DNA of 62,113 nt, filler included, from Malassezia furfur (GCA_052055015.1; 7 parts of 7 records of this genome joined end to end with filler, not necessarily neighbours in it); one strand, 5' to 3'. Positions 777-58,523 are shown, numbered from the whole stretch's first letter. Translations and numbers: made by a program. The notes: generated by a model not told the origin, from the letters alone.

Positions 777-1304
777 TCAACACGTAATAGCCAGTCTGTA
801 TACTACAAGACGTCCAAACCCGTCCGTACTTCCTTCGAACCGCAGCGCCAGGTGCGTACATGCCACGTCCACGGCGTAGGCGGCCGCTTGCAGCTGCTGT
901 GCCACGTCCTCACGCTTGAGCGGAAACGTCTGCGCCAGGTTTCCGTCGGCCGGGTACACCGTCGCGAGCTCGACCCACGCGACGTCTTTGGGGTTCGCAT
1001 CGCTGGCCATTCCGGCAAGAAGCACGACACGGATCGGTGCAAATCCACCTGCAAATGTGCAGTGCACCGCCTGTAACGACGAAACGGCGCACGGCGCGTC
1101 CAAGGTCGCGGTCAAGGTGACCTGCGCCGAGGTGCTGGGCGATCCCTGCGTCAGCATGCCACGTACGAGCTCCACGGTCCAGCACGTCTCGCTGTCCTCA
1201 TTCAGGGCATAACGGGCTTCCTTGGACGAGCCTATCGATGCGCTGGGTCAGGTACGCACGTACCGCACACGCGTAGCGCGCTCCAGCACCGAACTGGAAG
1301 ACAT
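777..1304 (-). CDS. NR2C2AP-like galactose-binding-domain protein; one 21-nt intron (1243-1263)
   Basis: Splicing GTACGTGCGTACCTGACCCAG (contains an in-frame TGA) gives MSSSSVLERATRVRASIGSSKEARYALNEDSETCWT...FAGGF...VYPADGN...FEGSTDGFGRLVVY, matching the NR2C2AP motif pattern. Confidence 0.7.
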
Positions 1305-1369
1305 GCACGGAGCGAAGTGGAGGACGAGGGGTTTTTTGGCCCACTTTCCAGACACGCCGCCGCGACGCG

Positions 1370-2529
1370 ATGCCGGACGACGCGCCGTGGACGCTGGCAC
1401 CCCACCAGCTCCTGAGCGCGTTCCCCGAGATCAATGTATGTGCACCGATGGTGCGCTACTCGAAACTGCCCTTTCGCGCACTCACGGCGCGCTACGATAC
1501 CCACATCACGACTACTCCCATGATCCTCGCCGCTGAATTCAGCCGCAGTCAACATGCGCGCGACGCGGATTTCAGCACCCACGGCGAGGAGCGCGGCACC
1601 TTTACCCTCACGCCTGACCATGGCACCGGCACGGTCGCCGCCAAGGAGCGGCCGGTCCACGTACGCGGTGCCCTCGTATGCCAGCTGGCCGCGAGCCGCA
1701 GTGGACCGCTGGCGGATGCGTCCGAGCTGATTAGTCCGTTTGTGGACGGCGTTGACATCAATTGCGGGTGTCCTCAGCCCTGGGCGTACCAGGAGCAGAT
1801 CGGGTCCTATTTGTTGCGTCAGCCCGAGACGGTCCGCGACATGGTCCGTGCCATCAAGAGCCGCCTGGGCGACGGCTACTGCGTCAGTGTCAAGATTCGC
1901 GTCGACAGCGACCTGCGAAATACCGATACCCTGGTGCGCAATGCGCTACATGCGGGCGTATCGCTTCTCTCCATCCACGGGCGCACACGGACGCAGCCTT
2001 CGGCATCGCACCCCGTCGACCTCGACAAGATCCGCTTCGCCGTGGACGCGGCACAGGCGTGCGGACTCCATACGGCGCGAGGCACGGCGCAGGGCGACGC
2101 GTGGGTCGTTGCCGATGGAGGTGCAGGCGGCTGTGTACCAACGGTCGTCAACGGCGACATTTGGACGCGTGACGATGCACGGTCGTGGCGTGCGCAGACG
2201 GGCGCGCGCGGCGCCATGAGCGCGCGGGGCCTGCTTGCTAATCCAGTACGTGCAAGGCTCACCCAGGCGCTTTTCTCGGGCTATACCAAGACGCCGCCCG
2301 AGGCCGTCGGCGCGTTTGTCGAGCGTGCGATTGCGTGGGGTCTGCCCTTTTCGCTAATGCAGTACGTCGTTTGCTCATTCGCAGCCGCCACTTGGCCTAC
2401 ATGCTCGAAGACTCGATCACAACACGTGCCGAGTCGATCTACTTCAACTCGCTCGCGAGCCCCGCGAGTGTCCTGGACTGGCTCGAGGAAGGGGGGTATG
2501 TGTCGCAGGACAAGGCGGAGGTGGTTTAG
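1370..2529 (+). CDS. DUS4: tRNA-dihydrouridine(20a/20b) synthase; introns 2246-2266 and 2362-2384
   Basis: [19 protein letters not shown] and IHGRT motifs. Splicing restores [11 protein letters not shown] and the C-terminal exon to TAG 2527-2529. Confidence 0.9.
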
Positions 2530-3175
2530 GACTCGAGCGGCACAAAGGTGCTGCCGACCTCGGGCACGGCGGTCGTGCTCACCGATGGCGTCGGCGTCGT
2601 CTCCACCGTCTCGCTTACCTCGGACGCCGGCGCCGGGGCGTCCGGCGCCTCCTCCGGCGGCTTGATGGCCGGCTGGCTGGGGTCGCTCCAGTTGATGTTG
2701 AAGCGCGTCACGCGCGGCTTGCTGGCCAGCACCTCGCGGCACACCTTGTCGAGCTGCACCTCCTCGGGTGGGTTTTCGCGCATCTCTTCCGACTCATACG
2801 CATTGTTCACATAGTACCCCACGCGAATGAACTCGGCGTCGCGGTACGACGCGGTGAGCAGGATCACCGTTACGCCCAGCAAGTCGCTGGCCGGAATTTT
2901 TTCCGGCGACGGAGCCTCGGCCTCGAATTCGAACGAGTTCACGCCCACGGGAACTGGTCCGACCATGCAACTGTCGAGTTCCTGGTCGTATTCTTCGGAC
3001 TCGGCGGAGCCCACGTAGATCAGCTTCCATTCGATGTCTGCGGGTCAGCCTAGCACCATGACCTACCATCGTCCAATGGCTGGATGCACTCGAATGTCAC
3101 CTTGAAGATGTACGGGTCCGAGAAACGCGCCTTGCTGTTGATGATTTCCACGTTCTGCAGGTGCACAATCGACAT
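2526..3175 (-). CDS. ASF1: Histone H3/H4 chaperone Asf1; intron 3038-3066
   Basis: MSIVHL...[13 protein letters not shown] / [22 protein letters not shown] / [13 protein letters not shown] / [10 protein letters not shown]. Confidence 0.95.
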
Positions 3176-3259: not shown

Positions 3260-3649
3260 ATGGTGTGTGCCAAGTGCGAAAAGACGCTGTCCAAGACAGC
3301 GATCGCGGACCCCTACGTACGTGTTGGATTCACACAGCGCAACCGAAATACAGCCGGTTTTCTCGTATCGTCTGGCTCGGGTGCGCGGCCCGGCGCGATG
3401 CGCGGCGGCGCGGCGCCACCGGGCGGCGCGCGCAAAGTGGGCGAGAACAAGCTGCTCTCCAAGTCCAACCGGTTCTCGCCGCTGGATGCCAAATGCAAGC
3501 TGTGCAAGCAGCGCGTGACGCAGGAGCGTGCTTCCTATTGCCAGGGTACGTGTCGCCCTCCTTACCCAGCGTGCGCCTACAAAAAAGGACTGTGTGCCAT
3601 CTGTGGCAAGCAGATTCTCGATACCTCGCGGTACAAGCAGTCCAACTAG
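3260..3649 (+). CDS. CRIPT: CRIPT-family cysteine-rich protein; in-frame introns 3317-3337 and 3546-3569
   Basis: MVCAKCEK...RKVGENKLLS...CKLCK...YCQACAYKKGLCAICGKQILDTSRYKQS. Confidence 0.88.
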   Translation: MVCAKCEKTLSKTAIADPYVRVGFTQRNRNTAGFLVSSGSGARPGAMRGGAAPPGGARKVGENKLLSKSNRFSPLDAKCKLCKQRVTQERASYCQGTCRPPYPACAYKKGLCAICGKQILDTSRYKQSN

Positions 3650-5125: not shown

Positions 5126-5466
5126 CTACAGGTGTTTGGTAAACGGGATGGGCTCTGCGTGAAGCGAGCTCCAGTCGATTTTGCGGTCGCGCTCCACGTC
5201 GATGTCGCCCACAAGCGAGCTGGGTAAGTGGTGAGGAGGACGTACATGCTGTCGCCGCGCAGCACGTACACGCCCAGCGGCACTTCCTCGACGCCGGCGT
5301 CGGCGCTAAAGATGCGCTCGATGCAGTGCGAGAGCACGAGCGAGCCAAGCGCATCGTACCCACGCAGAGTCCCCAGCAAAACGCGCCCGTCCTGCGTCAC
5401 GAGCAAGACGCGCTCTGCGTGAGCGTGTGTCCACGTACGCTCCATGTATCCCTGCAGCGAGGACAT
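5126..5466 (-). CDS. LSM8: U6 snRNA-associated Sm-like protein Lsm8; introns 5415-5438 and 5220-5245
   Basis: TQDGRVLLGTLRGYD...ERIFS...VEEVPLGVYVLRGDSISLVGDID...IDWSSLHAEPI after splicing. Confidence 0.9.
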
Positions 5467-8911: not shown

Positions 8912-9011
8912 NNNNNNNNNNNNNNNNNNNNNNNNNNNNNNNNNNNNNNNNNNNNTTAATTAATTAANNNNNNNNNNNNNNNNNNNNNNNNNNNNNNNNN
9001 NNNNNNNNNNN
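8912..9011. other. Artificial contig linker
   Basis: N44-TTAATTAATTAA-N44 six-frame stop spacer. Confidence 0.98.
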
Positions 9012-11806: not shown

Positions 11807-11855
11807 GCTCGGTCGGATGGTGGAGGTAGGGCTTTTTCCACGTGCCCACGTCACG

Positions 11856-12723
11856 ATGACGCGCGGCGCGGCCGTCGACGGCGCCGAGGACGAGGGGCAC
11901 TTGCGCACGGTCGCGTGGGTCCCACTGGATCCGGACCTGCCTCGCGAGCTCGCTGTGCGCACCAGCGCCGACCTCACGCAGCGTACGTGGCCCCACTGAC
12001 GCCCAGGCATCACGCGCCAGGGTACCCCAGAAATCGAAGAGGCCCTCGCGCACGGCCGTGCAGTGCCGTGGCGCATTTCAAACGCATACTACGATGCAGA
12101 CGTGTTTATCCGGCTCGGGTCCTATGCGGACCTGAAGGGGGCACCGGCCGTGCTTCTTTTGGTCCGGCGCGACGCGGTAGGTCTGTGCACTGATACAGAC
12201 GGTACAGCAGCACCAGCAGTTCCTGGCGCATTTCGGCGTGTCTGGGTTCACGCTCGAAGTGTCGCTCGTGGTCGGCGTACCTACAGATAAGACATGCGCA
12301 GCGCTCCCTCGGAACGACGTCGACGAGGTGTATGCCCTCGACGGATGGGAATATTTGGACCTCGCCGTCGAGGGCGACGAACAGTACGAGGACCGCATTC
12401 GCGACGCACTCATGCTTCATACGTGGAAGGGGATGCAGATACATGGGCAACCCGGCTTTGATCCGCACGTCGAAGAAGAGGACACGGACGAGTTCTCCGA
12501 GTTTGTCGAGGCGCCGTCGGCGGACATGCCCACCCCCGACGAGATCGACGCCATGCGAGCACGCACAGGCCTGAACAATACACTGGGAATGAATACGGGC
12601 CCGGTCGTTTTTGACCGGCTGCGCGTCGAAATGGAGCGCATCCGCGCACTTCCCGCGGGGCCAGAAAAAGAACGCCAGGCGGCTGTGGTCGCGTTGGCGG
12701 TCGAACAGGCTTTGACGGAGTGA
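11856..12723 (+). CDS. Alpha/gamma-adaptin-binding protein p34 (Irc6/AAGAB-like); introns 11983-12006 and 12177-12198
   Basis: PWRISNAYYDADV, GWEYLDL, RIRDALMLHTW and a C-terminal helical domain; splicing joins three ORF pieces. Confidence 0.7.
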
Positions 12724-14155: not shown

Positions 14156-14732
14156 TTATGCAGTAGCAGACGTCCATCCCGCGATCATCTCAATTTGGTG
14201 GTCAAACTTTTTGCTGGTAATGGTCTTGGCGTCGGTTTCCGCACTAGGTGCAATACTGGGCGGGTCCCCGTTGCCAAAGACATTGCTTCCAGGAAGATCG
14301 CCGGGATGCACGCTGACGAACGGGTCGGAGACGTAATTCACATAGACCAGCCGAATTGCTCGGAAAAGAGTCTGGACGTCGCTGTCTTGGACCGGGTCGT
14401 CATTCAACTGCAGCATGAGTAGGAACTTGACATTCGTATGTGTCATATATCCGTAACTGGTATAAGCAATCAGAACATACATCATCGTATCTTCAATTGT
14501 GGTGAGGAGGCCAAGGTAGGGCTGAGCATGCTGGGTGGCTTCGGTCAGCCTAATCACCGTACCTCGCTCCTCGACAACATCCAATGCGCTGTGGGCCAGA
14601 AAATAATATTTTGTGCTAGCAGAATCTTCATCTGGAGAGACACGCAGATAGATGGGTAAATTCCGCGCGTTCAGTACGGCGATGCATTGCTGGGTAAGAA
14701 TCGTCGCTGCATACCACACGACTTAACGACAT
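14156..14732 (-). CDS. Sedlin-family TRAPP subunit (TRAPPC2L/Tca17-like); introns 14690-14714, 14539-14562, 14457-14480
   Basis: CIAVLNARNLPIYLR, LAHSALDVVEER, YLGLL, YGYMTHTNVKF, YVSDPF. Confidence 0.85.
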
Positions 14733-17980: not shown

Positions 17981-19108
17981 AAACGCCAACGACCGCCGCT
18001 GGAACGGCAGCAGATGCGCATGCAATGCGCGTGGCAGCAGCGCCTCGAGCGCCGGCCACGGCAGCCGGAAGCCGGCGTTGATCAGCGCCGCAAGCAGCGC
18101 GGGCGGCTCGCTGTGCGCCGCATCGGCGCGGTGCAGCGCGCCGAGCGCGTCGGCGAGCGCGGGCGGCAGCGCCCACACGATCGTGCCCGTGCTCGGCGAG
18201 AGCGGCAAAAAGGCCAGCGTGCCCGTCGGCAGGAAGCGCTGCCACGCGCTCGTGTCGACGAGCGGCTCGGCGCTCGCGGGCGACAGGCCCGTGCGCAGCG
18301 TCGCGACGAGGCCCTTGCGGTCGTACGGCCACCCGTAGCTCTCGATCCCGGCAAACGTGCGCACGGGCGAGTTGTGCCCGTCGGCGCCGACGAGCAGGCG
18401 CGTGCGGATCGCCCGCGCCCCGGCGTCGTTCTCGAGCGAGACGACCGGCCACGCCTGCGCGTCGGCCGCGTCGATGCGCGCGACGCGCGTCTTGTCGAGG
18501 ATCTCGACACGCACGCCGCACGCGGGGTCCGCCATGTGCTGCTGCACGAGGCGGTACAGCGCCTGCTGCGCGTTCGAGATCTCGACCATCTTGGACAGCG
18601 CGCCGCTCGGCGCGGGGCCGGGGCCGAACTCGGCCGCGGCGTCCGACACGCCGTCCCACACGCGGATGCGCTCGACGTTGCGCATGCGCGACGCGTCCAG
18701 GTACGCATCGGCGCCGATCGCTGCGTCAGTGTGCGCGCGACGTACCCCGCATCCAGTCGAGGTTGTCCATGTTCATGCTGATCACGCGGTTCTCCCACTG
18801 CACGCCGTCGTCGTGCGGCGTCGCGGGGCGCGTCGCCGCGTCCTTGGCACTCTTCCACGTCGCGAAGCGCGACAGATCCATCGCGTCCACGAGCGCGACC
18901 TTGAGCGGGGGCAGCGCCCGATTCGACACTACGGTCAGCCCACGCACAACGCACCCAGACCCGCGAGCATCGCGAGACCCACCACGCCGCCGCCCACAAT
19001 CACCACGTCTGCGTCGCTCGTGGTGTGCGCATAGCGCGCCGCACGCACCGCCGTACGCACCGTCGCGGCCGCCCACCCGGCGCGGCGCACGCCGCTCCGC
19101 ACCAGCAT
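17981..19108 (-). CDS. COQ6: Ubiquinone biosynthesis monooxygenase (3' truncated); introns 18929-18954 and 18721-18745
   Basis: [50 protein letters not shown]. Confidence 0.92.
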
Positions 19109-19160: not shown

Positions 19161-21462
19161 ATGCTCGCCGTGCGCGTGCGGAGCAGCGGCGCGGCGCTCG
19201 CCGCGGACGCGCGCATCCTCGCACCGGGCGACGTGCTCAAGGCACGCAAGATCGCCACGGGCGCACACGTCGTCGTCACACAGCACGGGCAGCCGCTGTT
19301 TGCCGGCACGGCGTGGCCGTCGTTTGCGCTGCCCGCCGACGTCGTGTCGCTCCCCGCGCTGCTCGCCACGCCCGCGCAGCTCGCCGATGGGCAGCACGTC
19401 GAGATCGAGGCGCTCCAAGTCGCCAAGCACGACTGCCCGGTCGCCCAGACGCTGCACGCCGCCATCACGCCGCTCGGCGCCGACGACGCCCAGCTGCTCC
19501 ACGAGCTGCTCCAGACCGTGCTGCTGCACATGCTCGTCGACATCGGCATCGCACTGCTCGGCTCCACGCTGCAGCTCACGTTCCAGGGGAAGACGTACCG
19601 CGCGGAGCTCGTCGCGGCGGACGACGACGCTCCGCTCACGCAGCCCGGCACGCTCGTCCTCGTCACGCGGCACACGCGCCTCGCACTCGCGTCCGGCGCC
19701 GCGCCCGAGCCCGAGGCGCTCGTGGACGCGCGCGCCTACAGCGCGCTCGGCGGCCTCGACGCGCAGATCGCGGCCATCCGCACCCTGGTCGAGCTGCCGC
19801 TCACCCAGCCGGCGCTCTTTGCGCACTATGGACTGCCTGCGCCGCGCGGCGTGCTCCTGTACGGCCCGCCAGGCACGGGCAAGACGTCGCTCGCACGCAC
19901 CGTCGCCGCCTCGCTCAAGGCGCACGTCCTCACCATCAACGGCCCCGAGCTCGGCTCCACCTTCCACGGCGAGACCGAGTCCAAGCTGCGCGCTGTGTTT
20001 GAGCGCGCGGCGACGCACGAGCGCGCGATCATCGTCATCGACGAGATCGACGCACTCGCGCCGCGGCGCGACAGCAGTGCCGCCGTGCAGTCCGAGGGCG
20101 CGGGCGAGGTCGAGCGCCGCGTCGTCGCGACGCTGCTCACCCTGCTCGACGGGATGAACACGGCATCCTCGGGGCGCGTCGTCGTCATTGCGGCGACGAA
20201 CCGGCCCAACGCGCTCGACCCGGCGCTCCGCCGCCCGGGGCGCCTCGACCGCGAGATCGAGATCGGCGTGCCGGACCGCGACGCGCGCCTCGCCATCCTC
20301 CAGGTGCTGCTGCGCCCCGTGCCGCACACACTCACGCCCGACGACCTCGACGCGGTCGCCGCGCGCACGCACGGGTACGTCGGCGCGGACCTTGCGGCGC
20401 TCGTGCGCGAGGCGGGCATGGCGGCCATCGCACGCCGCGTGCACTCCCTCGACGCCAGCCTGGCGCGCCTCTCGCTCGCGCCGACCGACGCCGACCCGGA
20501 GCGCGTCGCGCCCGCCGACTTTGTGCACGCGCAGGCGATCGTGCGCCCGTCGGCGATGCGCGAGGTGTTTGTCGAGACGCCCAAGGTGTCGTGGTCGGAC
20601 ATTGCCGACAACGGCGAGCAGACCGGCGCGGACGGCGAGACGATCCCGAGCGTCCAGCGCCAGATCCGCGAGTGCGTCGAGTGGCCGCTCAAGTACGCGC
20701 ACACGTTCCAGCGGCTCGGCATCGACGCGCCCAAGGGCGCGCTGCTGTACGGCCCGCCCGGGTGCAGCAAGACGATGACCGCCAAGGCGCTCGCGAAGGA
20801 GAGCGGCCTCAACTTCCTCGCGATCCGCGGGCCGGAGCTCGTCAGCAAGTACGTCGGCGAGTCGGAGCGCGCGATCCGCGAAATGTTCCGCCGCGCACGC
20901 GCCGCGGCGCCCGCCATCCTCTTCTTTGTACGTGGCACGACTGACGCAGGACGAACTCGACGCCATCTCGGGCGTACGCAGCCACGACACGAGCAGCGCC
21001 GCCAACGACCGCATCGTCGCGAGCCTCCTCACCGAGATGGACGGCATCGACACAGACAACCATGTTATTGTGATTGCCGCAACGAACCGGCCGGACTGCA
21101 TCGACCCCGCGCTCCTGCGCCCGGGGCGCATGGACCGCCTCGTGTACGTGGGGCCGCCCAACGTCGAGGCACGCCGCAAGATCCTCGCGCTGCGCACCCG
21201 GAAAATGGCCGTGGCCGCCGACGTCGACCTGCACACGATTGCCGAGCTCGTACGTTACCCACGACTGACCCAGGCCGACGGCTGCTCGGGCGCCGAAATG
21301 GTGTCGATCTGCCAAGAAGCGGGTATGCTCGCGATGAACGAAAATATGGAGTGCTCCGAAGTCGCGGCGCGCCACTTTGAGACGGCCGCACGCACGATGC
21401 GCCGGCGCATCACGCCACAGATGCTCGAGAGCTACGCGCAGTGGCGCCGCATCCGCACCTAG
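19161..21462 (+). CDS. AFG2: Double-ring AAA+ ATPase Afg2/Drg1; introns 20928-20949 and 21250-21273
   Basis: Two Walker A motifs ([16 protein letters not shown]), [18 protein letters not shown]. Confidence 0.9.
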
Positions 21463-29906: not shown

Positions 29907-31686
<1,780 letters not shown>

Positions 31687-35757: not shown

Positions 35758-36587
35758 CATTGAGCTTGCCGAGCCGCTCGTAGTCCTCCACGGCGCCGAT
35801 GCCACACACGTTCTTGAGCACCTCGACGAGGATCACGACCTCGGGGTGTGCCAGGTCGGCGCGGTGCGCCGCCGAGTCCGGGATGCACGAGGCCACCAGG
35901 GGGATGAGCACGTCGCGCGAGAGCGACGTATGCGACCGGATGCGCGGCTCAATACGGTACTGCGTCAGCACAGAGGTACGCACCGTGCGCGGCCGCTCTG
36001 CCGTAAAGTAGCGCGGCAGCACCTGCGTCGCGGTCGCGCGGATCGCATCGACCTCGGCACGGCACAGCGCGTCGACCGGCGCGAGACGCTGCACGAAGCG
36101 CGAGCGCGACTCGCCCGTCTTGATCACGTCTTCCAGGACGCGCGCAACGACGCGCGCGGCGTCCACGGGCGGCGTGCACTGCACAAAGCACATGCACTCG
36201 GTATCCGTGTCGAGTGCCGTGACGCGCGCGGATTGCTTGCGCGGCGCACGCAGCGCAGCGAGCTCGCCGCGGATCTGCGCCTCGATGTCGTCCGCGGCGG
36301 GGGACGCCGCTGGAGCACCGGCCTTACTGTCCGTCTCCTTCTGCGCCTTAGCATCCTCTTCGCCATACAGCGCGGCACAGTGCTGTGTGAGTCGTGTGCC
36401 GTACCTCGGACAGGACCTCGACGAGATCCATCGCGGCCTTGCGCTCCTTGCCGCGCGCACACGAAATAAACACGCCGCTCGCGTCCGGCACATTCAGCAC
36501 GGTCGCGAGGCGGGTGCGGTGCCGCTGGTGCTCGCCGCCCTCGACGCGCCGGCGCTTGCTCGCGCGTCCTGAGCGCTCTGGCGGCAT
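35758..36587 (-). CDS. TAN1: THUMP-domain tRNA acetylation adaptor (3' truncated); introns 36383-36404 and 35960-35983
   Basis: GVFISCARGKERKA, DIEAQIRGEL, SRFVQRLAPV, DLAHPEVVILVEVLKNVCG. Confidence 0.88.
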
Positions 36588-39602: not shown

Positions 39603-40290
39603 ATGGACGACCCAGGCGGCGTGCGCGCGCTGCTCGCCAAGCTGCGGGAGCAGGACGATGCCGCGGCGAGAGCGACGTCGGCACCGCCGCGACAGGAGCC
39701 GCAGCAAGCCCGCCGGCCCTGGGCCGCGGCGCCGAAACGGTCGGCTTTTCTGCGCGACACCAGCGAAGATGCCTACGATCCATGGCAGCCTACGCTGCGC
39801 AGCCAGCCGACGTCCGCGCCGGCGAAGCCCAAAGACGATCCACGGAAAATGACATTTGCGGACGCGCTGCCGAAGCTCAAAGCGAGGATGAAGGACGCGG
39901 GCGTCGTCGCACAGTTACGAGACGTATGTGTGTGTCTCACCCAGATGCGCCAGGCACAGCATGCGCTCGAACGCACCTTGGCCAAGGAGCGCACGGATAT
40001 TATTGGGAGAGATGGGGAGAATCTGCGCGGGCCTGAGTATGTGATCGCACTCACGCAGCGGCGGACGCAACCAAGCACGGCATGCGCGCTGGCTATGGGA
40101 GGTGCTACGGCGCTGGGACGACCTTCAGCGTGCCCAGCAAATCACGATGGAAGAGGTGGGTGTGGTGCTGACGCAGCTTGGGCTCCCGCTGTTCTACGAG
40201 ACGAACGACCCCGAGGCGCTGTCGAAGCAGCGGCGCATGATCCAAGTGATCGACGAGATGATCGACGGCAGCCCATTACAAAGGACGTAG
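39603..40290 (+). CDS. Conserved fungal hypothetical protein (DUF2458-like); introns 39924-39944, 40037-40058, 40156-40176
   Basis: MTFADALP, Q..LER.L..ER, WDDL...QQ..ME.LGLPLFYETND after splicing. Confidence 0.7.
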
Positions 40291-44045: not shown

Positions 44046-44514
44046 CTACTCCTGCTCCGTCTGTGGTTGCTGGGTCAGACATGGGCTGCACGTACCTTGA
44101 AGAAGCGCGCGCGCCTCTCCTGGGTCGAGCCCAGCAGCGGGTTTTCCTTGTCGAGCCGCTCGACAGGCTTGGGCTTGAGGAGCCTCTCGTTGAGCATCGT
44201 GCTCCCTGCCGCCTGGAACGTCCCCAGAAGACCACCGAGACCCACACACGAGCCACCAATCATCGGGATGGAGCGCGCTGCGTAAGTCGAGCGAGCAACG
44301 TACCGGCCGACCCAATCACCAGACCGGCGGCGCAGCCGCCCGCTGCGCCGTTCCAGCCGTCGTCCTTGCCGCGCGCGTTCGCGGTGAATGCATCCGCATA
44401 TGCAAAGGCACCGCCGACAAGCGCTGAGATTAGCTGCGCAACGTACAAAACATCGCAATGGTGCGGCCCGTCCGGCTAAACACACCCATCGCGCCGCTGT
44501 GGTGCTTTTGGAGA
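44046..44514 (-). CDS. Complex I subunit NDUFA11 (21.3 kDa, Tim17 family), 5' truncated; introns 44424-44446, 44278-44303, 44070-44095
   Basis: GAMGVFSRTG, ANARGKDDGWNGAAGGCAAG, ERRARFFK. Confidence 0.85.
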
Positions 44515-44655: not shown

Positions 44656-45786
44656 ATGGAAGAAAGGTATCGCACTTGGTGCAGCAAGTACATGCGTTCG
44701 AGCCCGGCAGGGCTGTACTGCTTCTATAATGGTTCGGGTGACAACGGCGACGCAATAACCTGCTCGGAGGCACACGGCTATGCCATGCTCATCGCGACTT
44801 TGCATGGCAACCAAACGGATCTGGACGGTCTGCTCACTTTTTTCCTCGCATTCCGGAACGAGAACGGGCTAATGAAATGGCAGGTTCGGATGAACAAGCA
44901 CCATCACCTTTACGTTGAAGAAGACGCGAACGACTGTGCTACAGACGGCGACATTGACATTGCTACTGCGTTGTTCCTGGCCGCACGGCGTTGGCCACAC
45001 GGTTCGTCCATGTTCCCTGCAGGCGCATATGAGACGGAGGCAGCGCGTATTTCGGATGCGTTGCTGCAGCACTGCATCCATTCCACGTTGCATGTGCCGC
45101 TTCTGGGTGACTGGTGCAACACGGACGACAAGCAGAACCGCAAGCTGTACGACTCAACGCGCAGCTCTGACTTTATCCTGTCGAGTTTCCTGCTGTTCCA
45201 CATGAAGCACCCCAACCCGCATTCGCGTCAGCGCTGGCAGCAGGTCCTGGAATCGACGCTGAAATGTGCGTTAGACCAGTTGAACGTCCACCGCACGGGC
45301 CTCATTGCCGACTTCTTGGTGTACGACGGAAAGCATGGCTGGAAGCCGACAAGCGGAAAGCTGCTCGAATCGAAGCACGACGGAGACATGAGCTGGAACG
45401 CTTGCCGGACGCGTATGTCTTCATATGCTCACCTCAGCTTGGCGACTCGCTCATTACTACGCCGTGAGTGGCGACCAACGCATCCTCCCATTGCTCCAAG
45501 CAATGCACCACACGCTCGTCTCTGGTGTGTTCCCCTCGGTGCCGGCGGGTTTGCGCGTGCGTGACGGAAAGGCACTCGTGGATTATTCAGGTACGTCTCC
45601 CTACGTGCTCATGCAGGTCGCGCCTTCATTGCTCCAGCCGGGTATCTGTGTTACGTACTCGGGGACAGCAAGGGACAACAGGCCGCCGTCCGTGCCATGG
45701 ACGACGAGGAGTCCGAATACTTTGGCGACTCCATTGACCTGGTCATTGCCGAGGAAGCCATGGCCGCTCCCTACTGGCTTTCGTAG
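44656..45786 (+). CDS. Glycoside hydrolase family 8 (GH8b chitosanase/glucanase-like); introns 45413-45437 and 45591-45616
   Basis: SEAHGYAM, LMKWQ, ATDGDIDIA, TRSSDF, TGLIADF, LES...WNACRTPWR, YFGDSI. Confidence 0.9.
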
Positions 45787-48562: not shown

Positions 48563-49947
48563 ATGATTGACCTGCAGCAGCTCCAAGTCGAGAAGGGCGG
48601 CGACCCTGAGGTGGTGCGCGAGTCGCAGCGCAAGCGTGGCGCCTCGGTCGAGCTGGTCGACGAGGTGCTGGCTGACTACAAGAACTGGGTCTCGCTTGAA
48701 TTCCAACTAAACAACCTGCAGCAAGAGGTCAATGCGACGCAGAAGGCCATCACGGCCAAGAAGAAAAACAAGGAGAGCGCCGACGAAGAGCTCGCGAAAA
48801 AGAAGGAGCTCGATGCGAAGATCGCCGACTTCAAGCCGCAGGTGGCCGAGGCGGAGCGTGTGATGCGCTCCAAGGCGGGTACGATCGGCAACTTGGTCGG
48901 CGACAAGGTGCCGGTGTCGCAGACGGAGGACGACAACCTCGTCATCAAGACGTGGCATCCCGACGGCCCGAACGCACAGGTCGAGAAGAAGAACGACATC
49001 CTTTCGCACCACGAGGTGATGTACCGCCTCGAGCTTTTCGACACGGACCGCGGCGCGAAGATTGCGGGGCACCGTGGCTTCTACCTGACCGGGGACGGTG
49101 TGGACCTGAACCAGGCGTTGATCAACTACGGCCTCGACTTCCTCCGCAAGAAGTCGTACAAAAAGATCATGACGCCGTTCATGATGCGCAAGGAGCATAT
49201 GGCCAAGACGGCGCAGCTCGAGGACTTCGACGAGGAGTTGTACAAGGTCACGGGCGACGAGGACGACAAGTACCTCATCGCCACGTCCGAGCAGCCCATC
49301 TCGGCATTCCACTCGAACGAGTGGTTTGACAAGCCCGCGGAGCAGCTGCCAATCCGCTACGCAGGCTACTCGACGTGCTTCCGCAAGGAGGCCGGCTCGC
49401 ACGGCAAGGACACCTGGGGCATTTTCCGTGTGCACCAGTTTGAGAAGGTGGAGCAGTTCTGCATCACGGACCCCGCTAGCTCCTGGGAGATGCTCGACCA
49501 GATGGTCGCCAACTCGGAGGAGTTCTACCAGAGCTTGCAGATCCCCTACCGCGTCGTGGCGATCGTGTCCGGGGCGCTGAACAACGCGGCGGCGATGAAG
49601 TACGATCTGGAGGCGTGGTTCCCCTTCCAGGGCGAACACAAGGAACTCGTTTCGTGCTCGAACTGCACCGACTACCAGAGCCGCCGGCTCGAGGTGCGCT
49701 GCGGGATTAAGAAGCAGGGCGACTCGAAGAAGCAATACTGTCATATGCTCAACGGTACCCTGTGCGCCACGGAACGTGCGCTGTGCTGCATCGTGGAGAA
49801 CTGGCAGACGCCCGAAGGCCTGCGCATTCCGCCGCCGCTGCAGCCGTACATGCAGGGCCGCGACTTTTTGCCGTTTGTGCGCGTACGTCTCCGTTTGACT
49901 CACCCCAGGAACTGCCCAAGGGCACCACCAGCCAGAAGCGCAAGTAG
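48563..49947 (+). CDS. SES1: Cytosolic seryl-tRNA synthetase; intron 49883-49908
   Basis: ESQRKR, LIATSEQP, CFRKEAG, FRVHQFEKVEQF, ELVSCSNCTDYQ, ATER. Confidence 0.97.
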
Positions 49948-49966: not shown

Positions 49967-52145
49967 TTAGTAACTCCGACCAAACATGGTCCAGCGCTTG
50001 GCGGGCTTGCCACACTGCGGGCAGTTGCGACCGTCGATCGCAGGGTAGGCCTCCTGGTCGAACGGAATGCAGAGCGACTTGGCACCCATCGACGGCGCAC
50101 GCTCGTCCTGCGACTCCTCCGACGAGACGGTGCGCGCGCTGCGGTCCTTGATCTGGTCCTCGCACGCCTCCTCCTCGCACCAGGGGATGATGACGTGGTT
50201 CTTGGCGTTGAGCGTCTTGGTAAACATGTCCCAGTCCGTGACAACTTTGCGGTGGTCGCGGAATTCGGCGTCCGCCTTGGCGTACATGTCGTTGTGGATC
50301 GTGTCGAGCAGCTTGGGGATGCTCGCCGTGATCGAGTCAAGCGCCAGCGACTCCTTGGCGCCCGTGTCGCGGCGCACGCTGATCGCCGCCTTGTTGGCCA
50401 GGTCCTTGGGGCCGATCTCCAGACGGACCGGCACACCGCGCAGCTCCCAGTCGTTGAACTTGAAGCCGGGGTTGTAGTTGTCGCGCAAATCGGCGTGCGC
50501 GCGGATGCCGTGGCGGTTGAGCTCGGCGGCGGTGTCCTTGCACGCGTCATTCACCGCGTCCTTGACATCCTGCGGCACCTTGACGCCGAGACCGCACGGC
50601 ACCAGCACCACCTGCGTGCTCGCGACGCGCGGCGGCATCACCAGACCCTTGTCGTCGCCATGCACCATCACCATCACACCAATCGTACGCGTCGACAGAC
50701 CCCACGAGTTCTGCCAGACGTACAGGCGGCCCTCGGGCTTGCCACGCGTCTCGTCCGTGGCCTTGGGGTCCTGCACCGCAATGTCAAACATGCGGCTAAA
50801 GTTTTGTCCCAGGCAGTGCGACGTTCCGCCCTGGATACCACGGCCGGTCGTGGGAACGTAGCCCTCGACGGTGGTGGTGTACAGACCGCCGGCAAACTTT
50901 TCCTTCTCCGACTTAATGCCGGGCACCACGGGGATGGCCAGCAGTTCGTTGTACACGCGGCGGTACAGGTCGAGGATGTCGAGCACCTCCTTGGCGGCCT
51001 CCTCCTGCGTAAGGTGCGCCGTGTGGCCCTCCTGCCAGAGGAACTCGCGCGTGCGCAGGAACGGCTGGGGGTGCTTAAATTCCCAGCGTACCACACTGTT
51101 CCACTGGTTCAGCTTGAGCGGCAGATCGCGGTGGCTCTGAATCCAGCGCGCATAATAGGGGTACATCACCGTCTCGGACGTCGGGCGGATCGCCACGGGC
51201 TTCTCAAGGTCCGACTTGCCCGCACGCGTAACCCAGGCCACCTCGGGCGCAAAGCCTTCGATGTGGTCCTTCTCCTTCTCGAGCACATCAGACGAGACAA
51301 ACATGGGGAAGTAGCAGTTCTGCACGCCGAGCTTCTTGATCTCGCCGTCGAAGAAGCGCTGGATCGACTCCCACACAAAGAAACTCCACGGCTTGAGGAT
51401 ATAGCAGCCGCTCACGTCGTAGTAATCGAGCATGTCGCCCTTGCGCAGCACCTGCTGGTACCACTCGGGGAAGTCGAGGTCCTTGCGCACGGTAATACCG
51501 ATCAGCTCCGCCTCGGGGATCTTGGCATCCACGGCCTTAGCCTTCGGCTCGGGCTTTGCAGCTGGCGCAGCAGGCGCCGGTGCCTTGAGCGAGCTGAACG
51601 GCACCACGTCAAGCTGCACCTGGGTGCTTTCGAGGTACTGCTGGATTCCTGCGCCCGTCACAAACACCGTCTCGGATGCGGAGAGCGCATGAACGGCATA
51701 GGTCACCTTCGACGACACAATGTCCTCATCCAAGAGTACGCGCACCTTGCTAGCGTTGCCCTTGGTGACATTGAACGGCGACACTGTGTGAGTCGTGTGA
51801 TCACCTACCATCGTCCTTAGTCGCACCCAGCGTCGCCTTCAGCAGATCGGGCACAGCGAGGCGCAAATCCTTGAGTTTGAGCTGCGCACCAATGGCGCTC
51901 GTGTTGGTCTGCGTCGCATCGTCGGTCAAGACCACGACAGGCAGTGGCGTCTCCGACTTGGCCGTCTTGGGCTTGAAGACGAGCGTCTTCAGCAAGTGGT
52001 AGTCCTGCGGCTTGTCGGCGGCGGGCACGGATGCAAGCGCATCCGACCACGCAGCCTGCGAGTCAGATGCCGTGTGTGACACGGCCTTGGATGCAGCCGG
52101 CTCAATCGATAGCGACGACAGCGCTGCCAGAAGAGAATCACTCAT
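49967..52145 (-). CDS. Cytosolic prolyl-tRNA synthetase with N-terminal YbaK-like domain; intron 51784-51808
   Basis: KTLVFKPK, YYDVSGCY, RPTSET, FLRTREFLWQEGH, QNSWG, C-terminal FGRSY. Confidence 0.96.
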
Positions 52146-52226: not shown

Positions 52227-53182
52227 ATGACGGCGCGCAGCGCGACGGTGGAGGAGTTCAACGACGATACAGACGTACGTGCGGTGCACTCATGCAGTTT
52301 GCCCTTCCGGGCGTGAGCTCGTCACAAGATGTCGCAATGCCGAGCGTCGACATGATGCAGGAAATGATGGCACAGATGGGCGGAGGTGGTGCATCGGCGG
52401 GCGCGCCTAGCGGTGCGAGCGGCAACGTGCGCTCCGCGTCACGGCACACAACGCCCAATGTGGCGGATGATGGCGAGAAGGATGGACCGCACAAGCACTG
52501 GACGAGTGTGTACCCCATCTACCTGGACGCCAAGCAGCGATACCGTAAGGGGTGCCGCCGAATCGCATACGAGAAGGCGATTTTGTACCCCAACAGCCAG
52601 TACATCTCGAATGCTGCCAAGCACCTCAAGCTTGAGTACATGCACGAACCATACCGCACGCACCCCCGAGACTGGGCGAACCCTGGTCGCGTCAAGGTGC
52701 GGCTCTACAACGACGACGGCAATGCCGTGCGCGCCGACATTCCCACCAAGCAAAAACTGCTCGAAGCGATTGCTGCCAACCTGCAGGCTGTCACGGGTGG
52801 CAAGCCGCCGCCGTTGCCGACGCCGAGCAAGCCGGCCCGTGCGTCCAACGACACCCAACAGGGTGCGAAGACGGCGCGCTGCGCGGCAAGTGGCAAACAG
52901 GCGCTGCGTGCGCGCGAGCGGCGTATTCGGCGCATGCAGGTTCCCAGCACGTTCCCGCCGCACTCGCCTGCGATGCCGGCAGGAATGCTCGGTATGGACC
53001 TATCGAAAATGGCGGGCGCCGCCGGCGCAATGCCCGGCATGGGCCCCCTCGGCAGTATGATGAGCTCGATGGGCCTTGGCGACGATGATGACGAGCCTGC
53101 CGAGGAGGAGAAGCCCGCTGCGCGGCAGCAGCCTGCGCTCGGCCGGCGCCAGCGGAAGCGTGTCGTGCGCATTGCACGTTAA
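52227..53182 (+). CDS. SEC65: SRP19/Sec65 subunit; intron 52275-52297
   Basis: VEEFNDDTD/FALP, W..VYPIYLD, RRI, HPRDWANPGRVKV. Confidence 0.92.
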
Positions 53183-53352: not shown

Positions 53353-53452
53353 NNNNNNNNNNNNNNNNNNNNNNNNNNNNNNNNNNNNNNNNNNNNTTAA
53401 TTAATTAANNNNNNNNNNNNNNNNNNNNNNNNNNNNNNNNNNNNNNNNNNNN
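53353..53452. other. Artificial contig linker
   Basis: N44-TTAATTAATTAA-N44. Confidence 0.98.
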
Positions 53453-53678: not shown

Positions 53679-55285
53679 ATGTATGACCCGCATATCTGGT
53701 CGACTCCACAAGCGTATGCGTACCGGGGAGACGTGATGCACTCGAATCAGTTCCTGCCATTGGGGATACAGCCTATGGCGCCGGGCGCGTACGGCGCAGC
53801 GGCCGCCTATGCGCCGTCTGGTATGATGGCCCCTGCCCTGCCTCCCCCCCTCGCGGTGATGCGGCGACCTAATACCGCATTCCAGCCGGTGCGAATTCAA
53901 CAACCAACTCTGGTCAGCTCCTTTTCGTACGATGAGCAAAAACACCTTCATCTTGATGACCGCTCAAAACGCTACTTCCACGATCCACCAACTGCACGCA
54001 GTCATGACAACGACACCAGGCGTGCTGCCGACCTCAATTATGGCTTCGAACACTTCCGTGAACAGGTACGGCATAACCTGACTTACATGCGCAGCCGCAC
54101 GTGCCCGATCCGTTGGACTCGGTCTTGTACACACTGATGCGCCGGGCAGAACAGCCTACGGCGCCGCCGCCCGTCGCAGGCGCTGCGTGCGTACCGGCAG
54201 AAGCTTTGGCATCTGAGTTGCTGCGCACGCAAGTGATTACTTGGCGTGGGATTCTTACGAAACTTTGCACGGCGTGGAGCTGTCACCCGGAAGCACCGCC
54301 CATGTTCCGGGATGGATTTGAACTGAACGTCATGATGCTGGGTGATACCCTAATTATGGAAGAGGTGCCGCCGAGCGCACATGTGCTCGCAGCACAAGGA
54401 CGCGCCAACAAGTCGCAAAAACAGCAACGGGCTACTTACTACGGATACAGTTTTGAGTCTTACTGTACGACGCCGCAGCCTACCGAGACGGCATCGTCGG
54501 CATTGTCGGAGTTGCACGCAACGTCCAACGCGATGACACCTCCGGGATGGGGCGAAGACGTGAATACCAACCGGCAGTGGTGTCACATTGTCAAGACCCG
54601 GCTCGGAGATACCCGAATTATCATTGGCGGTGAGGTTGATTGCGTTGAAACGGCGGCGATGGAGACGAACGCCACAAAGGAGTCAGTGGTGGAGCTGAAA
54701 ACGAGCATACAGCCGCGCAACGAGCAGGACCAGATGCGGCTGCATGCCAAGATGCTGCGCATGTATATGCAATCGTTTCTGTTAGGTGTACAGTCGATTG
54801 TTTTGGGATTCCGCGACTCCAAAGGCGCGCTGCTCTCGCACGAGCACTACCGCACGATGGATTTGCCGCGGCTTGTCCGGGGCAAGCCGGGGCAGTGGAA
54901 TGCAAACGACAACCTTGCATTTGGTGCACACATCCTACACTGGCTGCACCAGACCGTGCGGGCCGAGATGGAGCGCTGGTCGTTCTTCGTTGCGGACCGG
55001 CTAAAGCAGGCCGAGCAGGTGCGTGGACCGTATCCCTGGCGCGTGCACCGCACGACGCAGTCCTTCTTGGGCCACCTGCCACTGCCGTGCGTGGAGGACG
55101 CAGAGCTGGACTACCCCGTTTACCGGGTGAGCTTCCAGCCGCCGTTTGGGCAAGTCACGCTGCGCTACGTCCCGCCGGAGGAGCTGCAGCTCGATGGGCG
55201 GCGTGCGAACCGGTGTGGCCTGGTGCCGACCGAGTTTTACCGGTGGGCGACGACGCCCATGCCCATGGCCACGGAGGCTAGCTAG
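53679..55285 (+). CDS. RAI1: Rai1/DXO decapping nuclease; intron 54066-54094
   Basis: FSYD, DLNYGF, TWRG, YYGYSFE, GGEVDC, ELKT, QSFLLG, GFRD. Confidence 0.92.
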
Positions 55286-55323: not shown

Positions 55324-56944
55324 TTAGGCATGAGAGTGTCCCGCATGAGAGTGCCCCGCGTGAGAGTGCTCCGCGTGCTCCGAAGACTCGGCACTATCGA
55401 GCACCTGGGACCCACGGCTGTTGAGCTGGCAGCAGGTCGCGCCGCGGCACTCGTCCGCGTCGCAGGCGAGCAGGCACGTCTGGTCGCCCTTGGGCAGCTC
55501 GTCGTGCACCGGGTTGCCCTCGGCGGTGAGCACGCGGCCCTGTTGGTCCGTGTCGGGGTGCAGCTCCATGCCACTGAGGCGTGCCGCCTCTTTGACCCCC
55601 GACACGAACTCGGGTTGAATGGTGGTGGAGTGGATGCCCCAGAGGTGCAAGACGTGGCGCACCTGGTTCGCGATCTCCATGTACCGCGCGACCTGCTCGC
55701 CAGAGCAGTCGACCAGGATGTGCAGACTCGCCACGATCTTGTTCTCATTCAGCTGCCAAACGTGCAGATCGTGCAGGCTCAGGACGCCCTCGACGCACAG
55801 CACCGAATGGCGCACGCCGTCAATCGACACCGAGTGCGGCACGCCCTGTAGCAGGATAAATGACGCCGACTTGACCAGCGGCAGCGCCGAGTGGAAGATG
55901 ATGCATGCAATCAGGAACGACACCATCGGGTCCACATAGAAGCGCCATGCATAGTCGGTGTTCCAGATGAACAGGCCGGTGAGGATTACACCGACGTTGC
56001 CGATCGCGTCGCCCAGCACGTGCAAGAAGACTCCTGTCATGTTCATGTTCTCGTGTGAGTGGCCCGTCGAGCCCGTCTCGCGACGATGACGCGCGATCGC
56101 TGCCGCGGTGTGCGCTTCGTGGCTCATCGACGTACGACGGCTGGCGCTTGGGCCGGCCTCGTCCGCCGAGGCCGCGCCGTACTGAGCGCCGCGCTCGCCA
56201 CGCAGCAGCGCCTGCTGCTCGCCCTTCTTGGCCGCCTCATAGCCGAGCGAGTGTGCCTTATCCACGATAAAAGCACGCGCCCGCGCGGGGTAGCCGACGA
56301 TGCTTTTGGTGCCGTTCAGCAGAGGGTCGTCCGCAGTCTCCTCCTCGTCATTATCATCATCGATACCCTCCTCGGCATGCGCCGGCTGATTTTCGATATC
56401 GTATGTGTGCTCGTGCTCGTGCTCGTGCTCGGGATCATGCCCATCGTGGCTATGTCCGCCATGGCCATGCGCATGTGCATGGCCCTGGAAGAGCGCGAGG
56501 CCGATGATGTTGGACGAGAGGCCCATCGAGCCCACAATCACGATCAGTTTCGGGTTGGACACCTCGGGCACCTTGACGATACGCTCGAGAGCCTCCATGA
56601 AGATGCTGAAGCACAATGCCAGAAGGAACACGCCGTTGAATAGAGCGCCCAGGATCTCGGCACGCTGCCACCCGTACGAGTACAAGGGATGCTTGTCGGC
56701 TTTGTTTTTGAGCTGCGTAAGTAGGGTGAGGGCGTACGTACCCGTACCGCATACAGCGCAACGACCAGTGACATGACATCGTTCAGCATGTGAAACGAGT
56801 CAGCCACCAGGGCCAACGAGCCGACCGCATACCCTGGAATTAGCGTGCACTATGCTTACCGCTAATGAGCTCGATAAAGAAGAATACAATGTCGATGCCC
56901 AGGAGGATCAGAATCCTTCCCTCGTTCCCAAGCGAGCCGCCCAT
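55324..56944 (-). CDS. ZRC1: CDF zinc transporter (Zrc1/Cot1); introns 56834-56859 and 56713-56741
   Basis: SLALVADSFHMLND, YGWQRAEILG, His-rich loop, GVFLHVLGDA, ILLQ, HSTTIQPE; His-repeat tail. Confidence 0.92.
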
Positions 56945-57454
56945 GATCGATGACAACGATGTCCCCCTAGTGTGCGTGATGGTCCGGCAAAATTAATTCC
57001 CCGAACCAGTGTATGAAAAAAGCGCAGCTGTGGAGAGCACGACATGACATGACACGGGCGCGGCCGGCACCGGAGCGGCGTCTACGTCACGCACACGAAC
57101 TCGCACATACTCATGATAGCACGAAGTATGGCATTCGCACATGCGCACTATGCTTGCATCGCGTCTCTTAGGAGTATCCCACGTCGTACAAAGTGCTTGG
57201 CATCTACCGGAAAAAATATATGCCCACCAGGTGACAAGTTCTACCACCGTGGCGCTTTTCAGCGCAGGTAGACTTGCCAAAGAGTGGACTCGGCTCGTTC
57301 TCGGAGGCCAATGTTGAGCCAGACCGCCACGATGGCAGGCAGCTCATGAGGATGGCCTCCTTGCTCGTTAAACAATGAAAAGAAGCCTTTGCACCGCACG
57401 CTCGTCTCGTCTTTGCTGTCACGTGACGATCGCGAGACCGACGTGCAGTGTGGC

Positions 57455-58523
57455 ATGGCGCACGACCCGCCGAGGACGCGAAGCCGCGCGAGCACGTCGC
57501 GGGCCCTCGCTGTGTCCTTCGATGCGGGGCAAGCGCGTGCGCGGGCCTCAGACGTGCACGCGTCTTTCCAAGACGTCGTGCGCCAGACCGGGTGGCTCCT
57601 GCGCCAACGCGCCCAAATGATTCGCCAAGGCCGCGCAGGCTGCGAATGCATGCCCGTCTTATACCCGCTCGCACACGCGTGCAAGCAATATCTAACCCAT
57701 ACCGAGGCATTGCGCGAGCAGCTCGTAGGTCATTCGACTCACCCAGCTTTGTGCACAGGTGCTTCTCGAGCATGCGTTAGAAAAGACGCATGGCTCCGCA
57801 GCGCCGGCCACCGAGAACCTCGAAGCCGCCCCGATCACCACCGATTCTTCGCTCTCACAACTTGATCCAGAGCTCTATCGCGTCATTTCTTCGATGCCGC
57901 TCGACTGGAGTGGCGAGCAGGGCACTGCCACCGCTGCTACACTGCCAGCGTTGCCCGACATGGGCGCACTGGCAGCGGTGACGGCGGGTGCACCCGCACC
58001 TGCGGTGCCCGCAGTGCCTTCGCAGGTGCCTGGAGCGGACGCGAGCTCGGCAATAGCAATCGACAGCGACGACGACGAGCCGACTGCAACCTCGGCACCG
58101 GCGCGGAGAGAAGGCGAAGCGCTCAGCAATGCTCAGCCGACCAAGAAGCGCAAGGTGGACTCCGCGGTGCCAGCGCAAGGACAGGCCGCCGACTTTATGT
58201 CCATCTTCCTCTCGAACCAGCTGGGCGGTGCTGAGGACCCGAAAAAGGGACCCACGACCGCCGCCAGTGCTAACCAGGTCACCCAGGCCGCCTCGAGCAG
58301 CACCGCTGCGCCGGGCCTTGACTCGCTCATGAGTGAGCAGATGCCCGGTATGACCGACCTTAACTGGCTTGATTTTAGCACGCTCGGCGGCCAGGACGGC
58401 GGCGAGGGTGGCCAGTTCTCGAGCCTGTTTGGCGGCGCCTCGAGTACCGATCTCGACGGCCTTTCATCGCTCGACTTTTCCACACCGCTACCGTCGTTGG
58501 ATGCGGAGAAAAAGAATGGCTAG
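57455..58523 (+). CDS. Hypothetical protein with helical N-terminus and low-complexity acidic tail; intron 57725-57746
   Basis: GTAGGT...CTCACCCAG intron joins two ORFs; NLS-like PTKKRK. Confidence 0.65.

Follow-up and report, generated by a model that had tools for sequence, protein, structure and literature searches.

It is known that genes of Malassezia yeasts contain very short introns. In the curated annotation of Malassezia sympodialis, as described in the accessible parts of the paper, there are 5350 introns with a mean of 30 bp, 99% of them supported by RNA-seq and about one per gene, while its supplement gives a cumulative intron size plot only (PMC5389616), and an accessible passage of a review states that Malassezia genes hold very short introns (PMC7426719). 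In Yarrowia lipolytica, Trichomonas vaginalis and Giardia lamblia a branch motif of strong consensus is anchored close to the terminal AG at a constant spacing, with no pyrimidine tract, and most fungi lack that tract (PMC2483917). Among the ciliates, Paramecium and Nyctotherus have ultra-short introns of about 25 bp (PMC5014332), and Stentor coeruleus has introns of 15–16 nt whose branch A is nucleotide 10 or 11; a steric-clash hypothesis has already been put forward for this species (PMC9505925). We found no published splice-signal layout for Malassezia in the open-access literature (subscription journals being outside the scope), and nothing on signal layout is given in the accessible text of a survey of fungal introns with M. 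sympodialis among its species (PMC8476143). Here we analyse a stretch of 62,113 nt from Malassezia furfur (GCA_052055015.1), called the window below, where the genes appear to be interrupted by 41 introns of 21–29 nt. With a probability of about 0.9, we consider these micro-introns to be ordinary U2-type GT-AG spliceosomal introns shrunk almost to their bare signals, which would represent the normal published architecture of the genus and not a peculiarity of the locus.

The whole analysis is based on the sequence, the reading frames and homology. The gene models were built by an exon-chaining (dynamic-programming) search in which introns of up to 150 nt were allowed, and were then corrected by hand, without the intron list of the initial annotation of this stretch. 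Since a filter on G+C at third codon positions (GC3) failed to split the sense frames from the antisense frames, codon log-odds trained on 11 long open reading frames (ORFs) in the window were used instead. For each intron, the coding score of the 25 codons downstream was compared between the spliced frame and the retained frame, and Pfam profile searches were run exon by exon to give the junction coordinates. The "introns" of 87–147 nt that were present in the first gene models were spurious, belonging to antisense or run-on models, and were removed by hand.

The hand-corrected models contain 41 candidate GT-AG introns in 22 genes, spanning positions 1146–57746 (Table 1). The initial annotation had also counted 41 introns of 21–29 nt, with the agreement at the level of sites checked for the three examples that it quoted (1243–1263 on the minus strand, 2246–2266 and 40156–40176), all of which are present at these coordinates and strands. 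The lengths are 21 nt (7 introns), 22 nt (5), 23 nt (3), 24 nt (7), 25 nt (6), 26 nt (8), 28 nt (1) and 29 nt (4). All 41 start with GT and finish with AG. Their donors all agree with GTRNGN, and 24 of these read GTACGT; 40 introns have CTNAY as the branch-like motif and the remaining one has TTCAC; 39 end in CAG and 2 in TAG. The donor hexamer is separated from the branch motif by a spacer of 6–14 nt, and the branch motif from the YAG by a gap of 1–5 nt. The distance from the putative branch A to the 3' end is 5 nt in 26 introns and 5–7 nt in 38 (range 5–9), which puts this A at intron positions 16–24, and in each of the seven 21-mers it is nucleotide 16, as had been claimed. Moreover, the T runs are never longer than 3 and there is no pyrimidine tract, in line with the earlier description of a branch motif standing right before the acceptor. 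The G+C content of the introns is 57%. It is noted that the length distribution has an abrupt lower edge at 21 nt, with seven introns of that length and none shorter among the 41, in agreement with, though no proof of, a spacer that is never below 6 nt.

The consensus of the initial annotation was also counted in its strict form, i.e., GTRYGY, a spacer, CTNAY, 1–6 nt and YAG with a total length of at most 32 nt, where both strands were scanned and distinct acceptors counted. This consensus gives 35 acceptors in the window, as compared with 3.1 ± 1.9 (maximum 9) in 100 dinucleotide-preserving shuffles, and 32 of the 35 matches belong to the 41 introns. The three other matches (11955–11981, 43155–43180 and 59696–59719, all on the plus strand) are coding or antisense, and their number is about the chance expectation. 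The match at 43155–43180 was rejected as an intron as it lies within an uninterrupted ORF of 900 codons, that at 59696–59719, together with a segment at 53910–53930 on the minus strand, as being antisense to genes, and the 27-nt match at 11955–11981 as a chance-like motif adjoining the intron at 11983–12006. Within the TRAPPC2L-like gene, a 32-nt segment GTACGG..CAG of exon 2 was also rejected, as it aligns as coding. A looser motif scan of the window gave 28 extra motif-like stretches, among which there was no convincing intron of 21–29 nt.

The reading frames and the homologues give further evidence. For the 27 introns whose length is not a multiple of three (non-3n), the spliced frame outscores the retained frame in every case, and 12 of the 41 introns have an in-frame stop in the gene's own frame. 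Moreover, the coordinates of profiles or of chains with solved structures join exactly across 12 junctions, namely those of ASF1, CRIPT intron 2, the four introns of HMG-CoA synthase, AP sigma intron 1, prolyl-tRNA synthetase (ProRS), RAI1, AAA ATPase intron 1, THUMP intron 2 and zinc transporter intron 2. For example, in ProRS, exon 1 (112 residues) has position 75 of the tRNA_edit profile at its residue 110, and exon 2 has position 79 at its residue 1, with 77 and 79 standing at the junction, and in RAI1 the placements of profile positions 47 and 55 (Table 1) imply that positions 48 and 49 adjoin there. In the zinc transporter, exon 2 ends at residue 59 of the human ZnT1 chain 8zb0_A and residue 12 of exon 3 corresponds to residue 71 of this chain; because residues 59 and 60 meet in the 29-nt form, an alternative donor giving 35 nt is excluded. 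The 41-nt ATG exon linked by the intron at 1243–1263 encodes a peptide that the orthologues of M. vespertilionis and M. pachydermatis have conserved, and the removal of 2362–2384 in the tRNA-dihydrouridine synthase (DUS) gene restores a conserved C-terminal block found in 12 of 17 homologues. Exon 3 of the COQ6-like gene begins at position 71 of the COQ6 profile, and exon 1 of the seryl-tRNA synthetase (SerRS) gene spans the entire serS profile. A search of NCBIfam with COQ6 exon 2 or ProRS exon 1 gave no match, nor did a PDB search with the THUMP exon. The call at 14690–14714 in the TRAPPC2L-like gene is the weakest, i.e., the least secure among the non-3n ones; the alignment of exon 2 of this gene with TRAPPC2L begins at chain residue 4, and, on inspection of the sequence, exon 2 would have no upstream in-frame ATG without this splice. 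The weak coding score at 44070–44095 in the Tim17-family gene (for which "NDUFA11-like" is a name assigned in this analysis) arises from a last exon of just 8 codons. The nearest named relatives are all from Malassezia, and over 40060–40287 the window is 100% identical to an M. furfur protein, with two residue differences over the whole protein; the window is best explained as nuclear DNA of M. furfur. The earlier reading as spliceosomal-type micro-introns of a Malassezia species is thus supported. Of the 41 segments, at least 39 have strong support as introns.

The remaining difficulty is with the introns whose length is a multiple of three (3n), which number 14, 3 of them with a stop and 11 stop-less. 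The 11 are the hard cases, since their retention would only add 7 or 8 residues, and, being 3n without a stop, retained copies would escape nonsense surveillance. It could thus be argued that some of these in-frame segments of 21–24 nt are coding insertions, or that they are optionally retained and give isoforms longer by 7 or 8 residues. In favour of this are the share of such segments (11 of 41), the public M. furfur model P0129, which translates two of them, and the segments at 3317–3337 and 27331–27351, for which the homology evidence is not decisive: the comparison of the former with human CRIPT in the PDB falls in a variable region, and in the latter case the spliced AP sigma has 6 residues past the last aligned residue, as in the 142-residue AP-2 sigma (136 of 142), while retention adds 7. 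By contrast, none of the 11 lacks any of the donor, branch and acceptor signals, and nine of them are backed by homologues or profiles: either the homologues are without them, or they form an exact insertion when aligned to a profile or a solved chain (DUS intron 1, intron 2 of gene 777–1304, CRIPT intron 2, AAA intron 2, TRAPPC2L-like intron 2, THUMP intron 2, LSm8 intron 1 and introns 1 and 3 of gene 39603–40290), with one suggestive (AP sigma intron 2) and one a candidate by its motif (CRIPT intron 1). The annotated orthologues of M. vespertilionis and M. pachydermatis are without the seven would-be residues of 1146–1166, and the seven encoded by 2246–2266 are lacking in 15 of 17 aligned homologues across Basidiomycota. 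In the same 10 of 12 LSm8 homologues that are without the residues of intron 1, the exon-1 peptide is joined directly to exon 2, and the spliced N-terminal length agrees with that of S. pombe and human LSm8. Reading through THUMP intron 2 gives 88 residues over 81 profile positions. For gene 39603–40290, where P0131 of M. brasiliensis is the only annotated orthologue from another species that was found, 4 of the 7 codons of 40156–40176 differ in a related read-through ORF as compared with 2 of 69 flanking exon residues. Over four in-frame introns in such read-through ORFs of the related lineage, the intron-coded residues differ in 10 of 28 cases and the exon residues in 50 of 661 (Fisher p = 4.5e-5), i.e., the former diverge about 5 times faster. 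We regard coding insertion or optional retention of some of these segments as improbable. It is noted that in-frame stops are not enriched in the 3n introns (3 of 14, against 32 of 123 when all introns in all frames are counted, in a small sample) and that 3n lengths are not avoided (14 of 41).

Two further explanations concern all of the introns. One is that GC-rich coding DNA contains the motifs by chance and that no introns interrupt the genes; in its favour, GC-rich DNA also yields long open frames by chance, and three strict motif matches are indeed non-introns. However, 35 matches where 3.1 are expected, frames that are restored in 27 of 27 cases and profile coordinates that meet exactly at the junctions leave practically nothing for this explanation. 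The use of more distant splice sites, with longer introns or skipped small exons, might be suggested by the M. brasiliensis model P0122, which goes from exon 1 to exon 3 in the orthologue of gene 777–1304, and by the alternative acceptors at 12207 and 44061. Yet the orthologues of M. vespertilionis and M. pachydermatis have conserved the residues of the exon skipped in P0122, ZnT1 fits the short 29-nt form of the zinc transporter intron, and the search up to 150 nt gave longer introns only in antisense or spurious models, so that we consider distant sites to be very improbable. There are nevertheless several points that weigh against short spliceosomal introns at all 41 sites. Excision, precise splice positions and the branch nucleotide are predictions made from the DNA; 12 of the 27 non-3n calls stand outside the junction tests with homologues or profiles, five of them being called by frame and coding score alone and seven also by a stop within or overlapping the retained intron; the two in-frame segments translated by P0129 are of 21 nt; the evidence for 3317–3337 is the motif alone, and that for 27331–27351 only the C-terminal length; the acceptors at 12198 and 44070 have the alternatives mentioned above, in frame and 9 nt onward; and the assembly is apparently shifted in frame by 1 nt at one place or more (in SRP54), for which reason the frame arguments presuppose a mostly correct sequence.

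With a layout of a 6-nt donor (mostly GTACGT), a spacer of 6–14 nt, CTNAY, 1–5 nt and the first YAG, the micro-introns would most likely be removed by ordinary U2-type splicing under intron definition. The donor would pair with U1 and later with U6, and CTNAY would pair with U2 with its A bulged out, giving a lariat of 16–24 nt. The acceptor would then be the first YAG, 3–7 nt past the branch A, with no pyrimidine tract needed. It was proposed in the initial annotation that a lariat of 16 nt is near the steric limit, with a spliceosome that may be adapted to such introns. The steric limit is contradicted by Stentor, which splices introns of 15–16 nt with the branch A at position 10–11, according to the accessible part of the paper (PMC9505925). 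A wider reading joins these features: there may be a hard mechanical floor at 21 nt (at least 6 nt of spacer between donor and branch, with the A never before position 16), the dependence on a pyrimidine tract may have been shed, and stop-less 3n micro-introns (11 of 41) may be tolerated, unlike in ciliates, so that retention would give in-frame isoforms with 7 or 8 more residues escaping surveillance. We regard this joint reading as rather unlikely. If it is true, M. furfur would be a tractable fungal model for a spliceosome handling introns below its own footprint, and, as M. furfur is transformable, a genetic one.

The practical value of the micro-introns lies in the annotation of this skin yeast's genes, and the expectation in the initial annotation that gene finders would mis-annotate them holds for the public models aligned here. 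In DUS, 4 of the 5 aligned named Malassezia orthologues (M. obtusa, M. yamatoensis, M. equina and M. cuniculi) stop at or run into a micro-intron and lose the conserved C-terminal block; in M. brasiliensis P0122 the 76-nt middle exon is skipped with exon 1 joined to exon 3; and in M. furfur P0129 two 21-nt introns of gene 39603–40290 are translated. The models P0002, P0004, P0009, P0010, P0122 and P0129, which are orthologues of genes 1370–2529, 777–1304 and 39603–40290, disagree mutually at the micro-introns. As the public models thus truncate, read through or skip exons, the Malassezia protein sets for comparative or clinical work hold avoidable errors.

Table 1. Putative micro-introns of the window in order of position (scores are coding scores, spliced versus retained frame; "profile" and "chain" numbers are positions in the profile or solved chain named)
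Intron and gene	Coordinates	Strand	Length (nt)	Features and evidence
Intron 2, unnamed gene 777–1304	1146..1166	-	21	phase 0, 3n, no stop; GTACGT..CTGAC..CAG
Intron 1, gene 777–1304	1243..1263	-	21	phase 2; stop after 5 codons if retained
Intron 1, DUS gene 1370–2529	2246..2266	+	21	phase 0, no stop
Intron 2, DUS gene	2362..2384	+	23	score +11.3 vs -28.0
Intron, ASF1 gene	3038..3066	-	29	Pfam ASF1: exon 1 = 1–36, exon 2 = 38–153, split codon = 37
Candidate intron 1, CRIPT gene	3317..3337	+	21	3n, no stop; motif only, weaker branch TTCAC
Intron 2, CRIPT gene	3546..3569	+	24	Pfam Cript: exon 2 to 64, exon 3 from 66
Intron 2, LSm8 gene	5220..5245	-	26	score +14.5 vs -10.4; spliced C-terminal part aligns with homologues
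Intron 1, LSm8 gene	5415..5438	-	24	3n, no stop; 10 of 12 aligned homologues without its 8 residues
Intron 1, unnamed gene 11817–12723	11983..12006	+	24	stop after 5 codons if retained; no homologue evidence
Intron 2, gene 11817–12723	12177..12198	+	22	score +11.1 vs -24.0; alternative in-frame acceptor 12207
Intron 2, TRAPPC2L/sedlin-family gene	14457..14480	-	24	3n, no stop; read-through = exact 8-residue insertion vs TRAPPC2L chain 7b6d_H
Intron 1, TRAPPC2L-like gene	14690..14714	-	25	follows 18-nt ATG exon; retained-frame score -27.6
Intron 2, COQ6-like monooxygenase gene	18721..18745	-	25	stop after 6 codons if retained; score +18.7 vs -26.0
Intron 1, COQ6-like gene	18929..18954	-	26	stop if retained; score +14.9 vs -24.9; joins FAD-binding exon in frame
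Intron 1, Afg2-like AAA ATPase gene	20928..20949	+	22	exon 2 from AAA profile position 64; score +12.6 vs -21.1
Intron 2, AAA ATPase gene	21250..21273	+	24	3n, no stop; exact 8-residue insertion vs yeast Afg2 chains 7wd3_A, 7nku_A
Intron 1, HMG-CoA synthase gene	23028..23053	+	26	stop if retained; N-domain profile 16 at residue 19 of 20-residue exon 1, 18 begins exon 2
Intron 2, HMG-CoA synthase gene	23181..23209	+	29	profile 58 at residue 41 of 42-residue exon 2, 62 at residue 2 of exon 3
Intron 3, HMG-CoA synthase gene	23567..23591	+	25	N-domain complete (174/174) in exon 3; C-domain position 8 at residue 2 of exon 4
Intron 4, HMG-CoA synthase gene	23885..23909	+	25	C-domain 90 closes exon 4, 91 opens exon 5
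Candidate intron 2, AP-complex sigma subunit gene	27331..27351	-	21	3n, no stop; suggestive only
Intron 1, AP sigma gene	27611..27638	-	28	Clat_adaptor_s 51 closes exon 1, 53 at residue 2 of exon 2
Intron, SRP54 gene	30243..30266	+	24	stop after 6 codons if retained; downstream exon from SRP54 GTPase profile position 6
Intron 2, THUMP-domain gene	35960..35983	-	24	3n, no stop; downstream half from THUMP profile position 26
Intron 1, THUMP-domain gene	36383..36404	-	22	score +9.1 vs -27.6
Intron 1, unnamed gene 39603–40290	39924..39944	+	21	3n, no stop; missing from M. brasiliensis P0131, coding in M. furfur P0129
Intron 2, gene 39603–40290	40037..40058	+	22	removed in P0129 and P0131; score -3.2 vs -20.6
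Intron 3, gene 39603–40290	40156..40176	+	21	3n, no stop; missing from P0131, kept in P0129
Intron 3, Tim17-family gene	44070..44095	-	26	stop if retained; score -10.6 vs -17.5; alternative acceptor 44061
Intron 2, Tim17-family gene	44278..44303	-	26	score +2.8 vs -22.8
Intron 1, Tim17-family gene	44424..44446	-	23	stop if retained; score +14.6 vs -19.2
Intron 1, glycosyl hydrolase family 8 (GH8) gene	45413..45437	+	25	score -1.9 vs -19.9; frame logic only
Intron 2, GH8 gene	45591..45616	+	26	score 0.0 vs -11.3; frame logic only
Intron, SerRS gene	49883..49908	+	26	precedes 13-codon last exon; score +3.7 vs -21.3
Intron, ProRS gene	51784..51808	-	25	stop after 2 codons if retained
Intron, SRP19 gene	52275..52297	+	23	follows 48-nt first exon; score +2.7 vs -33.3
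Intron, RAI1/Dxo-type nuclease gene	54066..54094	+	29	RAI1 profile 47 at residue 128 of 129-residue exon 1, 55 at exon 2 residue 7
Intron 2, cation-diffusion-facilitator zinc transporter gene	56713..56741	-	29	human ZnT1 chain 8zb0_A residues 59 and 60 meet
Intron 1, zinc transporter gene	56834..56859	-	26	donor GTAAGC; stop if retained; score +9.0 vs -18.4
Intron, unnamed gene 57650–58523	57725..57746	+	22	score +3.7 vs -28.0; frame logic only

Some other features of the window are described as follows. The only longer well-formed intron candidate is a 37-nt segment at 32512–32548 on the minus strand (GTATGT..CTAAT..TAG), which lies after the coding end of a minus-strand ORF and could be a 3'-untranslated-region (3'-UTR) intron or a chance match; its splicing would lead into antisense sequence. 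Upstream of it there is a short GC-rich tandem repeat (32860–32945, minus strand), and between the ORFs 32877–34628 and 32525–32983 there is an unexplained frame change. The SRP54 frameshift is located at about 30051–30057, with SRP54_N positions 1–44 in one frame (29907–30053) and the rest in the next frame from 30055. As a 1-nt shift is not explicable by an intron, it would be either an indel in the assembly or a mutation of the strain, in a gene that is essential. Two genes in the window are related to splicing and have two micro-introns each: that of the U6 snRNP protein LSm8 (5126–5466, minus strand) and that of CRIPT (3260–3649, plus strand), whose sole match among solved structures is chain 7dvq_0, belonging to what we take to be a structure of the human minor spliceosome. 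An Rfam search of the whole window gave no match, snRNA genes included.

The G+C content of the window is about 65%, in agreement with the 64.9% given for M. furfur CBS 14141 in the accessible text of PMC7025860. Twelve masked runs of N, each of 44 nt, form six pairs spaced by about 8.86 kb (8912–9011, 17881–17980, 26795–26894, 35658–35757, 44515–44614 and 53353–53452), and the N runs interrupt the COQ6-like gene, the THUMP gene and the stretch just upstream of the GH8 model (44692–45786). The gene packing is extreme: DUS (plus strand) and ASF1 (minus strand) are convergent with an overlap of 4 nt at 2526–2529, where their stop codons are interlocked, and the ends of the SerRS and ProRS genes are 20 nt apart (49947 and 49967). 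At 15401–15850, within a zone of lower G+C (12700–17800) of this genome of 65% G+C, there is an AT-rich core of about 450 bp, with a G+C content of 8–30% in 50-nt windows. The CENP-A-bound core centromeres of M. furfur are reported to have 168–721 bp and 15–27% G+C (PMC7025860, accessible text), and by this match in size and composition the core may be one of the seven centromeres.

Finally, we compare the micro-introns with the known systems. Paramecium avoids stop-less 3n introns, while here 14 of the 41 introns are 3n and just 3 of these have a stop. With Paramecium and Nyctotherus the micro-introns share the length class, but those are ciliates and not fungi (PMC5014332). Stentor is similar in that its GT-AG introns are shrunk genome-wide to a narrow length class with a fixed position of the branch A, but as described in the accessible part of that paper they are AU-rich (about 76%) with no strong branch consensus, whereas those of the window have 57% G+C, a strong donor and branch motif, and the A at 16–24 (PMC9505925). 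With a minimum of 21 nt, this G+C content and a strong CTNAY, we reject an assignment to the tiny introns of the ciliate (Stentor) type. The anchored systems share with the window a strong branch consensus, a short and constrained distance from the branch A to the terminal AG (5–7 nt in 38 of 41 here) and the lack of a pyrimidine tract. The Yarrowia spacing of branch motif, 2 nt and AG is the modal one here (26 of 41), but its introns are hundreds of nt long, whereas here the 5' half is compressed as well; the systems of Irimia and Roy 2008 have the motif ACTAAC, whereas CTNAY is looser, and such anchored branches occur in highly intron-poor genomes; in the window, about one intron per gene is counted (all from the accessible text of PMC2483917). 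M. sympodialis, of the same genus, is alike in having introns of around 30 bp, roughly one in each gene, compared with 21–29 nt and 22 intron-containing genes in 62 kb here, the difference being that it is another species and that the paper, in its accessible parts, gives sizes and no branch-site position or length floor (PMC5389616). The micro-introns of M. furfur thus combine an architecture known for the genus with a known kind of branch-acceptor anchoring, and are in this sense already known. The clean description of the signal layout, with a donor hexamer, a spacer of at least 6 nt, CTNAY, 1–5 nt, YAG and a 21-nt floor, extends the known patterns and reveals no new one.

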